A stretch of 64,000 nucleotides of DNA from contig CDLV01000016.1 in the NCBI GenBank assembly GCA_001244265.2, positions 558,001 to 622,000 on the forward strand, read 5' to 3'. A model generated the notes under the pieces. That model was given only the letters and a program-made list of their open reading frames with translations. It did not search any database and was not told the origin of the DNA. The stretch's first letter is position 1, and each line of letters opens with the position of its first letter. Origin of the DNA: Microbotryum violaceum (taxonomy: Eukaryota). The translations under genes were made by a program, and so were the position numbers. Positions 62,035 through 64,000 of the stretch are shown piece after piece.

Positions 62035-64000
62035 GTCAAAGCCCACACTACATCGCACTGTACGTCGACGACCTTCTGATGATCAGCCTGGACCTGGCCG
62101 TAATCGAACGCGTCATCTCGGGCCTGGAACAACGTTACGGTGTCAAACGCCTTGGCCGGCCGAGTACATCCTCGGCATCCAGATCAGGCGTCTCAACGAC
62201 GGCTCTATCGCCCTATGCCAGGAACGGTACATCATGGACGTGCTCGCTCGGTTCCACTTCGACACTACGGCTCGCGGCGCTACCATCCCGATGACCCCCG
62301 GTCTTTCGCTCACCGCCATTCCGGGCCAAGGCACGGAACAGATCAGGTCGTGGTATCTACAGCAATCGGCTCGCTCCTCTACATCTCGCTTGGCACTCGC
62401 CCCGATATCGCCTTCGCCGTATCTTACCTGGCCCGCTTCGCCAACAACCCGGGTCAGCACCATTGGATTGCCGTCAAGCACGTCCTACGCTACCTCCGAG
62501 CCACTTATCGCGACGAGCTTCTCTACACTCGTGGTAAGACGGACATCACGGGCGTGGTAGGTTACTCCGATGCCAACTGGGATGCCTGCGTCGACACATT
62601 GGTCTCCACCATGGGTTTCCTCTTCTACATTGCCGGCTCCGCTGTGTCCTGGTCCTCCAAGCGTCAATCGCGCATCGCCGACTCTACCACCGACGCGGAA
62701 TACCTCGCTCTCTCGCATGCTGGCAAGGAAGGGATCTACCTCAGTCAGCTGCTTGAGGAGCTCCATGTCCAGTCCGGTATCCCCGCTCACATCTACACTG
62801 ACAACGAGGCTGCTGCCGCCGTCGCACGAGACCCTGTCCGCGCATCCGGGACTCGACATATCCGTCTGCGTGAGCACTTCGTTCGGACATGGTGAATCGG
62901 GGTGAGATTTCTCTTTCGCACGTGGGACAAGCAACATGGTGGCCGACATCTTTACCAAGGCACTTGGCCCGAAGATTTTTTCCATGCATTGCTATGCTCT
63001 CGGCTTGCGCACTCGACATCCACGGCTTGGGTCTGCCTTGCATTCGCGTGGGGGGGGGGGGGTGTGACAAGTCCACTCTCAGCTCGGCAGAGGCGCCTCG
63101 GTCGTTGCGCGCACCCGCTAGCCCGCCCCCTGCGCTGGGGACTTAGACGCGCGCGACTGCCTCAGCGAGCAGGCGCCAGCGGACTCGGGCGCGCGCCCGC
63201 TAGGCCGCCCCCTTGAGGTGGCGACTTAGACGCGCGCAGCTGCCTCAGCGCCCTAGCGATTTCACCCACGGCTGGGCCTATCCCAGTGCGGGCCCCCTTT
63301 CTGTTTCTTAGCTTCCCTCTCACCACTTCTGTTCAACAATCAACCTCTCCTGACAGTAGTGGTGATTGTCTCATAGGTATGCTGAAATAGACCACTTCTG
63401 TTCAACAATCAACCTCTCCTGACAGTAGTGGTGATTGTCTCATAGGTTATTCGCCATCGACCTACCGCTGGCATGGACACGTCGTCGCCCCTAATGACGG
63501 GTGCCCACCCAACAATCCCCGCCGAACAGCTCGCCGCACTTACGTCGCTGCTGTCGGGTCTCACCACTGCCACATCCGCCACGTCGTCCGGCACCTCTCG
63601 CCCCGCCTTTCCCAAGCACGCACGCTTGGATGGGCCCAAGACGTTTGCGAGCTGGACACGCCAGCTTCGCCTCTGCCTCGCGGACGACATCCGCTCATAC
63701 GTCCTCGACGGGATCGTGCCCGCCGACTGGACACCTTCGCACCGCTCTGCCCGCGATGTCGTGGCACGTGAGCTTCTTGCGAACTCGATCGACTCGGCCG
63801 AAGTCTCGGCAGTCCTCGATGCAATCCCTACCGCTGACCTCACAGCGCCCAAAATGTACTCGACGCTGAAATCGCGGTATGCTCCTGACGACGCCACTCG
63901 CACGCTCGAGCTCTTCTCCCGACTGTGGAGCTTCCGGCCCATGCCTGGCACCGTTGGCGAATTCGACGGCTGGATCATGGAGTTCAAAGCTATTGCGCAA
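62035..64000 (+). mobile_element. Copia family A: RT/RH end, PPT, shared long-form LTR 63063-63444, PBS, gag running off the window
   Basis: [13 protein letters not shown]-run, TGTGACAAG...CTCATA|GGTTATTCGCC, gag LDGPKTF. Confidence 0.9.

Follow-up and report, generated by a model that had tools for sequence, protein, structure and literature searches.

A candidate self-renewing intron in the long terminal repeats of Ty1/Copia elements of Microbotryum violaceum

Ty1/Copia Elements and Their Long Terminal Repeats in the Window

The window (the whole 64,000-nt stretch analyzed here, G000:C14:558001–622000 of a 33-Mb genome in 20 contigs) is filled from about 37 kb to its end by a nest of Ty1/Copia elements (RVT_2 and rve by Pfam). 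In the window frames, as in two elements from metagenomes (L111 and L112, see below), the Pfam order is integrase before RVT_2 reverse transcriptase. Long terminal repeats (LTRs), a primer-binding site (PBS), a polypurine tract (PPT), and 5-bp target-site duplications (TSDs) are all present, with 19 TSD-matched LTR pairs and 13 solo LTRs flanked by a TSD. LTRs of families A and B end in TA and those of family C in CA or TA, TG...CA ends being a common, not an obligatory, feature of LTRs.

The family A Copia LTR at 63063–63444 (+ strand) has the ends TG...TA and contains two copies of a repeat unit. It is the shared LTR of a tandem, with a pol end and a PPT of 12 G (63051–63062, +) on its left and the PBS (63445–63455, +) and gag on its right. 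The PBS is of the GGTTAT..GCC type, which probably corresponds to the half-tRNA type of Drosophila copia and Ty5 (GGTTAT..GCCC), a type whose PBS is complementary to the anticodon arm of initiator tRNA-Met, and gag begins at the first ATG past it, in a frame that is open to the window end (63473–64000, +). The proximal unit (63322–63376, +), the putative first exon, lies after a pyrimidine-rich tract, and transcription probably starts at its A63322. It is followed by a linker that starts with the donor GTATGC (63377–63389, +), is common to subfamilies A1 and A2, and is similar in families B and E. Then come a junction base (63390, +), which is G in the window copy and variable genome-wide, and the distal unit (63391–63444, +), which is identical to the proximal one. 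Donor, linker, distal unit, and an AG acceptor form a candidate intron of 69 nt (63377–63445, +), with a candidate branch-point motif, CTGAC, inside the distal unit (63419–63423, +). The acceptor consists of the last A of the distal unit and the first G of the PBS, so that the candidate intron is complete only where a PBS follows; its removal leaves a single-unit LTR joined to the PBS, a form that is present in DNA as well. Both unit ends read CATAG/GT, which places AGGT within the duplicated segment, as in the Rogers type of intron birth (see below).

In the same LTR, an internal repeat of U3 (63121–63250, +; copies 63121–63167 and 63204–63250, 83% alike) is not homogenized and was used as a control. 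A weak hairpin is predicted in the proximal unit 63322–63376 (z −1.4); hairpins of the units were weak in general (z 0.1 to −2.1) and were not counted as evidence. At 62884, 62923, 63125, and 63453, the window copy has single-base gaps relative to several public runs, so the assembly probably contains indel errors in repeats, and broken frames should not be over-read.

Family A is further represented by two-unit LTRs of the G type, namely solo LTRs at 48850–49232 (−, with a 5-bp TSD) and 59325–59707 (+, TSD CGGGA) and a 3′ LTR at 50956–51339 (+), and by a single-unit 5′ LTR (45721–46034, +). Copies of subfamily A2 are an LTR fragment with A2 variants in both units and the junction base C (54178–54352, −), a single-unit LTR (43418–43729, +), and a single-unit LTR whose U3 side is cut (61804–62019, −). 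The window LTRs of family B (53560–53952, +) and family E (36804–37029, +; left edge approximate) have one unit each; two-unit forms are present elsewhere in the genome for B and, with the linker, at loci L157–L159 for E. In family C, the LTR at 59862–60367 (+) consists of a unit, a long GT-AG segment, a short linker, a unit, a short linker, a unit, and a tail. A second family C LTR with three units (37159–37645, −) carries TTTGATC in the last unit alone, and the 5′ LTRs of this family have two units (40210–40558, −, with TTTGATC in the last unit; 54353–54719, +) or one (42706–43000, −).

Other elements lie among and beside these. A 325-base TRIM-like element (57035–57359), inserted in a family C pol, has two LTRs of 95 bases (57035–57129 and 57265–57359), a PBS of the family A type, a G-run PPT, and the TSD CCAAT; it has no unit repeat, and further copies, some in tandem, occur in the genome. 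A Gypsy element with a chromodomain (8382–20861; RT, RNase H, integrase, Chromo) has 875-base repeats at 93% identity, and the unit repeat is absent from its LTR region (8300–9400 and 19900–21000 examined). In the contigs listed, family A copies are concentrated in one dense cluster each and are mostly nested in one another; these clusters are possibly centromeres. Two family B elements, G000:C14:685355 and 697174 (L097–L099), have the same TSD at a distance of 11.8 kb and are a segmental duplication or an assembly repeat.

The candidate introns of families A, B, C, and E match host introns in donor, branch motif, acceptor, and length (68–80 nt). Element donors are GTATGC, GTACGC, GTATGT, GTGAGC, GTGTGT, and GTTAGT, branch motifs are CTGAC or CTYAC, and acceptors are TAG or CAG. 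Seven introns of a host PRP21-like gene, read from protein matches, are 61–86 nt long and have similar signals, with the donors GTGAGT, GTACAG, GTGTGG, GTCAGC, GTAAGG, and GTAAGT (twice). The best named relatives of a host gene are Sporobolomyces proteins, at 43–50% identity, so that the host probably belongs to the Microbotryomycetes. In family A, the branch motif is part of a predicted stem and two nearer AGs come after it, which counts against splicing. A candidate 63-nt host intron at 4406–4468 starts CAG/GTATGCTG, the first eight bases of which equal the family A donor. A few bases before the distal unit, the motif TG(A/T/C)AA, mostly followed by T, is found in the linkers of families A, B, C, and E and of L111 (495–522); it is absent from L112. 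Speculatively, this motif is a candidate 3′-end processing signal, which would place the poly(A) site within the distal unit.

Homogenization of Units within LTRs

The preliminary description held that the units are homogenized within each LTR, and the unit states on which it drew are all present in the window. The two units of 63063–63444 each read CAATCAAC, those in the LTRs at 48850, 50956, and 59325 each read CAATCGAC, and both units of 54178–54352 carry A2 variants; family C units read CCCTTGG in the LTRs at 37159, 40210, and 42706 and CCCTCG in those at 54353 and 59862. The LTR at 42706 has a single unit and is therefore uninformative on homogenization, and 54353 and 59862, being 100% identical over 282 bases, are not independent cases. 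At another site, 37159 and 40210 are discordant (TTTGATC in the last unit, TTCGATC in the first). Both single-site examples of that description sit in TCG/CGA, and TpCpG is the hypermutation target of Pucciniomycotina (PMC5381629).

Units were catalogued more widely. The unit tail has 581 matches genome-wide, and the catalogue (298 A, 76 B, and 205 C units) covers the window, 80 stretches taken from seven contigs, and 30 loci chosen by likeness to LTR 63063–63444; this choice of loci favors A copies with two units. Family A distances, trees, the U3 comparison, CpG masking, and the linker and nearest-neighbor counts refer to the first A catalogue (296 units, versus 298).

In families A, B, and C, the first and last units of an array are identical more often than by chance, which bears out the claim. 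Identity was found in 79 of 102 scored multi-unit A arrays (105 found; shuffle mean 28.0), 14 of 27 scored B arrays (28 found; 4.6), and 55 of 76 scored C arrays (77 found; 13.3). These counts were attained in 0 of 20,000 shuffles, the significance of which is overstated because the elements are related by descent. The non-identical arrays (23/102 A, 13/27 B, 21/76 C) were counted against re-templating; in A arrays, 18 of the 27 discordant bases lie at CpG columns.

Units group by element and show no position effect, as had been predicted. Over 99 of 104 A arrays, mean differences per 54 nt were 0.27 within one LTR and, between LTRs, 2.59 (proximal–proximal), 2.61 (distal–distal), and 2.60 (proximal–distal). 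The position-labeled unit tree gave 15 changes, a count that identical rows make hard to read, and distances and shuffles were used instead. When the six CpG columns are masked, a non-major haplotype is still common to both units in 21 of 99 arrays (4 distinct haplotypes), versus 1.5 expected (maximum 8). Unit site 21 requires 4–6 changes on the U3 tree versus about 29 when shuffled.

The join of proximal unit, linker, and distal unit is also contained in independent short-read contigs (run X2 record 21, 0 differences), and X13 records 14 and 15 (17 differences in 118 and 12 in 90), judging from these counts, fit A2 variants in both units. The contigs come from four public runs, none on record as RNA, and gave no start, end, or poly(A) signal. 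The one joint in them is the single-unit form, which exists as DNA too and so mimics the spliced form; it counts neither for nor against splicing.

The linker is a stronger point for homogenization than the shuffle tests. It is nearly the same in A1, A2, and B, and more loosely so in E, while the units of these groups have diverged strongly, which indicates that the units have been kept alike since the A1/A2/B splits. In family E, the three two-unit LTRs examined all have the GT-linker, with 1, 2, and 4 differences between their units; L159 differs from the other two by 7–9 bases and gaps, and does so in both units. Homogenization of units within LTRs is thus real.

Unit Edges, Array Forms, and Unit Numbers

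The base before the distal unit of family A is variable (G 197, C 11, A 10, T 3), whereas in all 307 cases the proximal unit is preceded by C (Fisher p 4e-10; 7e-6 for A and T alone). On a U3-only tree, the 11 non-G LTRs among the 84 scored represent 11 separate changes, as in random scatter, and the four other G positions of the linker do not vary in 112 linkers (first catalogue). Non-G junctions were not significantly enriched in 5′ LTRs (13/5 versus 36/29, p 0.28). The distal edge is ragged in family B, with 11 linker-end forms in 28 and an unchanged proximal side in 44 of 46, and G stands in place of C before the inner ATCAC in 3 of 29 distal units. It is ragged likewise in family C (15 forms in 109), where C precedes the proximal unit in 89 of 90 cases and the commonest junction base is C or A. 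Since family C and L111 have no G at the junction, cap copying is not general, and steering by the cap would apply to family A at most. Two three-unit A arrays (G000:C1:1089267 and C7:1672669) have a last linker that lacks its first 8–9 bases, including the donor.

Strong-stop cDNA ends of Ty1 and retroviruses can carry extra or wrong bases, and reverse transcriptase can copy the cap. The variable junction base resembles such an end, produced where the enzyme runs off the RNA 5′ end, except that its place is mid-LTR, directly in front of the distal unit, and not at the U3 edge that precedes the first unit. If the unit's first base is the transcription start, an extra base on the cDNA end would leave such a trace, and the junction base may thus be a record, kept in genomic DNA, of where reverse transcriptase left the RNA 5′ end. 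The reverse transcriptase of Tf1 adds non-templated bases (PMC3185545).

The U3 repeat of family A LTRs, with a spacing of 83 nt, behaves otherwise than the units: in the same 68 LTRs (of 84 scored; ungapped windows), its copies differ by 8.8 per 47 bases versus 0.26 per 54 for the units. Among 90 intact family C arrays, the long GT-AG segment, which lies after the first unit, is present once in 26 three-unit arrays and twice in none; one four-unit array has it twice, which was counted against re-templating. The arrays of this family look like splice isoforms. A leader with the long segment spliced out, landing on the last unit, would give the common form; deletion from three-unit ancestors can also yield the shorter ones. 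The end of the long segment (60142–60209) resembles a unit end (ACTTAC...GCTTGAGCAG) and may be what is left of an older distal unit that became trapped in the array and lost all but its splice signals.

Textbook replication gives two equal LTRs per insertion. Among the 19 TSD-matched pairs (one of which occurs twice, and one of which has a G run as its TSD), unit number differs in 13, with more units at the 5′ side in 10 and at the 3′ side in 3, and is equal in 6. Any model based on re-templating must therefore add a second choice of register at plus-strand transfer or later DNA deletion. The middle of the PBS varies freely across genome stretches (TTC, TAA, TGA, TTA, and TCA forms); this suggests that the primer tRNA does not serve as template for new copies of the PBS. 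In Ty3, plus-strand transfer makes use of R-U5, and tRNA does not template the PBS anew (PMC5371799); together with the variable PBS, this suggests that each LTR may choose its register separately. Post-insertion deletion likely also explains unequal unit numbers. LTRs with one unit lie scattered over the U3 tree (41 changes; 44.5 in shuffles), are more diverged (nearest-neighbor distance 4.3 versus 1.7, p 0.0006), and always have C before the unit. The third unit of the 5′ LTR at C2:1111217 carries the rare linker of a neighboring inverted LTR, which points to exchange at the DNA level.

A metagenome scan gave 22 loci, and 3 of the 19 examined (all except L123, L131, and L132) have a PBS of the GGTTAT type; the viral contigs searched contained no relative. 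Two metagenome Copia elements, L111 and L112, each encoding an intact 1490-residue polyprotein, show the unit–linker–unit design in unrelated sequence; L113 has only 110 upstream bases. L111 has a 34-nt exact repeat, 62 nt apart, with a GTAAGC linker between the copies. The distal copy of L112 (37 nt) matches exons a and b of its proximal copy with a 50-nt GTGAGC..TAG segment precisely missing; L112 is one contig, which starts at exon a, and exon a spans only 12 nt there. Such a distal copy would be expected from copying of spliced RNA, and DNA duplication or conversion would not drop the segment.

A Proposed Replication Cycle, Its Alternatives, and Related Systems

The anatomy, the homogenization, the junction variability, and the array types can be joined into a cycle with a putative start site, splicing, polyadenylation site, and strand-transfer register, and with some possible benefit of the intron. 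The proximal unit of the 5′ LTR would provide the transcription start, at its first base, and splicing would remove the linker and distal unit, so that the PBS would directly follow a single unit. The RNA 3′ end would keep U3, the proximal unit, the linker, and part of the distal unit; this 3′ copy would stay unspliced, its acceptor being cut off or, in families A and B, incomplete without the PBS. The cDNA of the spliced leader, often with one extra end base (a copied cap or a non-templated addition), would then anneal to the distal unit. In this way the proximal unit would supply the sequence of the new distal unit, and the intron would be restored. Forms with one, three, or four units may arise from unspliced or partly spliced leaders that land on another unit, and the register chosen at plus-strand transfer and later deletion between repeats may change unit number as well.

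That the distal unit is overwritten from the spliced leader had been proposed in the preliminary description and is partly supported. Four indirect lines point to such templating: the junction base, the unhomogenized U3 repeat, the isoform-like family C arrays, and the L112 distal copy. The simple version of the proposal is contradicted by the 13 unequal pairs of 19. As to the further idea that the long LTR is thereby restored, the mechanism would maintain a long LTR and could not restore one from a single-unit element, because the linker must come from a 3′ LTR that still carries it. We put at roughly two in three (0.68) the probability that, at each replication, cDNA of the spliced leader anneals to the distal unit and thereby restores the intron. 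The broader statement that the RNA 5′ end is the template from which the distal unit is renewed, with or without splicing, is quite probable.

Re-templating may also be conceived without the spliceosome, if reverse transcriptase slips between the direct repeats on an unspliced leader and then lands on the distal unit. Deletion between direct repeats by retroviral reverse transcriptase is frequent, the same ragged left edge and homogenization would result, and splicing is here predicted from DNA sequence. Slippage cannot, however, convert bases that adjoin the PBS, and C51T, four bases from the LTR end, is present in both units of 9 of 9 A2 arrays; it also gives no account of why four families and two foreign elements have splice signals at the edge of the repeat, nor of the exact loss of the GT-AG segment from the L112 distal copy, and so appears unlikely. 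Concerted evolution at the DNA level, by unequal exchange, slippage, or gene conversion between the 55–63-nt units after insertion, would account for the unequal LTR pairs (13/19) and for single-unit LTRs that are scattered, more diverged, and always preceded by C, and C2:1111217 resembles an exchange with its neighbor; such processes probably cause many unit losses. As the source of the homogenization they are rather unlikely, for the U3 repeat is not homogenized in the same LTRs at 83-nt spacing, exchange between the first and second units of family C would duplicate the long segment (a duplicate is seen in 0 of 26 three-unit arrays), and neither the A and T junction bases nor L112 would be given a reason.

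The presence of AG/GT at both unit ends recalls the Rogers model, in which introns are born in one-off events by tandem duplication of an AGGT segment, here separately in each lineage and without renewal, and such births are documented (PMC3265369). This model, with its spacer-free head-to-tail copies and one-event divergence, is very unlikely to apply: a non-duplicated linker of 14 nt lies between the copies and is common to A1, A2, B, and loosely E, the units have strongly diverged with no position effect, and the shared linker could not have arisen again through a new duplication in a single-unit LTR, so that the model is largely refuted. It is equally improbable that parallel TpCpG hypermutation or a consensus artifact of the assembly makes the units alike. 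The two single-site examples at TCG/CGA (PMC5381629), the single-base indels of the window copy relative to the runs, and the 11 junction C variants, which could derive from the proximal context, would agree with this. The co-variation nevertheless persists when CpG columns are masked, site 21 follows the U3 tree, and short-read contigs span the join, X13 records 14 and 15 fitting A2 variants in both units; on these grounds both processes were rejected as main causes.

Spliced-leader templating of the distal unit has partial parallels in known systems. The elements are like other Ty1/Copia (Pseudoviridae) in their LTRs, PBS, PPT, 5-bp duplications, and protease–integrase–RT order with RVT_2, and unlike them in that R-U5 is present twice with a donor-bearing linker between, that A and B LTRs end in TA, and that the distal copy tracks the proximal one. 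Penelope-like elements keep a short spliceosomal 5′-UTR intron (75 bp in Penelope) in the pseudo-LTR, just past the start site, and its deletion abolished reporter protein; the passages of these sources that deal with the intron call the significance of its retention unknown and describe no exon copy inside it (PMC2377424, PMC8557442). The elements described here belong to another class, with an rve integrase, RVT_2, and true LTRs with TSDs in place of the PLE reverse transcriptase, GIY-YIG nuclease, and pseudo-LTR, and the 3′ part of their candidate intron is a copy of exon 1 that appears to be renewed. In engineered split-intron retroviral vectors (Ismail 2000, in PMC3182074), reverse transcriptase builds a working 5′ intron from 3′ LTR sequence; these vectors are artificial, serve a single round, and are designed to eliminate the packaging signal, whereas the present system occurs in nature and appears to run in cycles, and its acceptor lies within the LTR or at the PBS. 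AGGT tandem duplication as a source of introns (PMC3265369, PMC4974935) is similar in that intron removal restores the single-copy sequence, and differs in that here the donor comes from a conserved linker that is not duplicated, and the copies have remained identical while the subfamilies diverged.

We incline, by a small measure, to a wider reading, that of a fungal Copia clade with a self-renewing intron. Its LTR would store the donor, the linker, and a landing copy of exon 1, to be rewritten at each reverse transcription. In family A, the copied cap base would direct the cDNA towards the distal unit, where G matches, and away from the proximal unit, where C mismatches. Trapped units would decay to ordinary introns, as is suggested by the family C long segment and the first intron of L112, and the cycle, if true, could thereby add introns to the leader.

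No description of a natural LTR intron rebuilt at strand transfer was found in the literature searched (titles and abstract openings, covering few subscription papers). Retroelements are expected to lose introns, since it is spliced RNA that is copied. A built-in cycle restoring the intron, if true, would solve this loss and add a new use of strand transfer. In another basidiomycete, intron removal greatly lowers the mRNA of most genes tested (PMC3744415), so that Copia elements in such hosts may need an intron. If true, the cycle would also provide a testable handle on how retroelements such as Penelope keep their introns.
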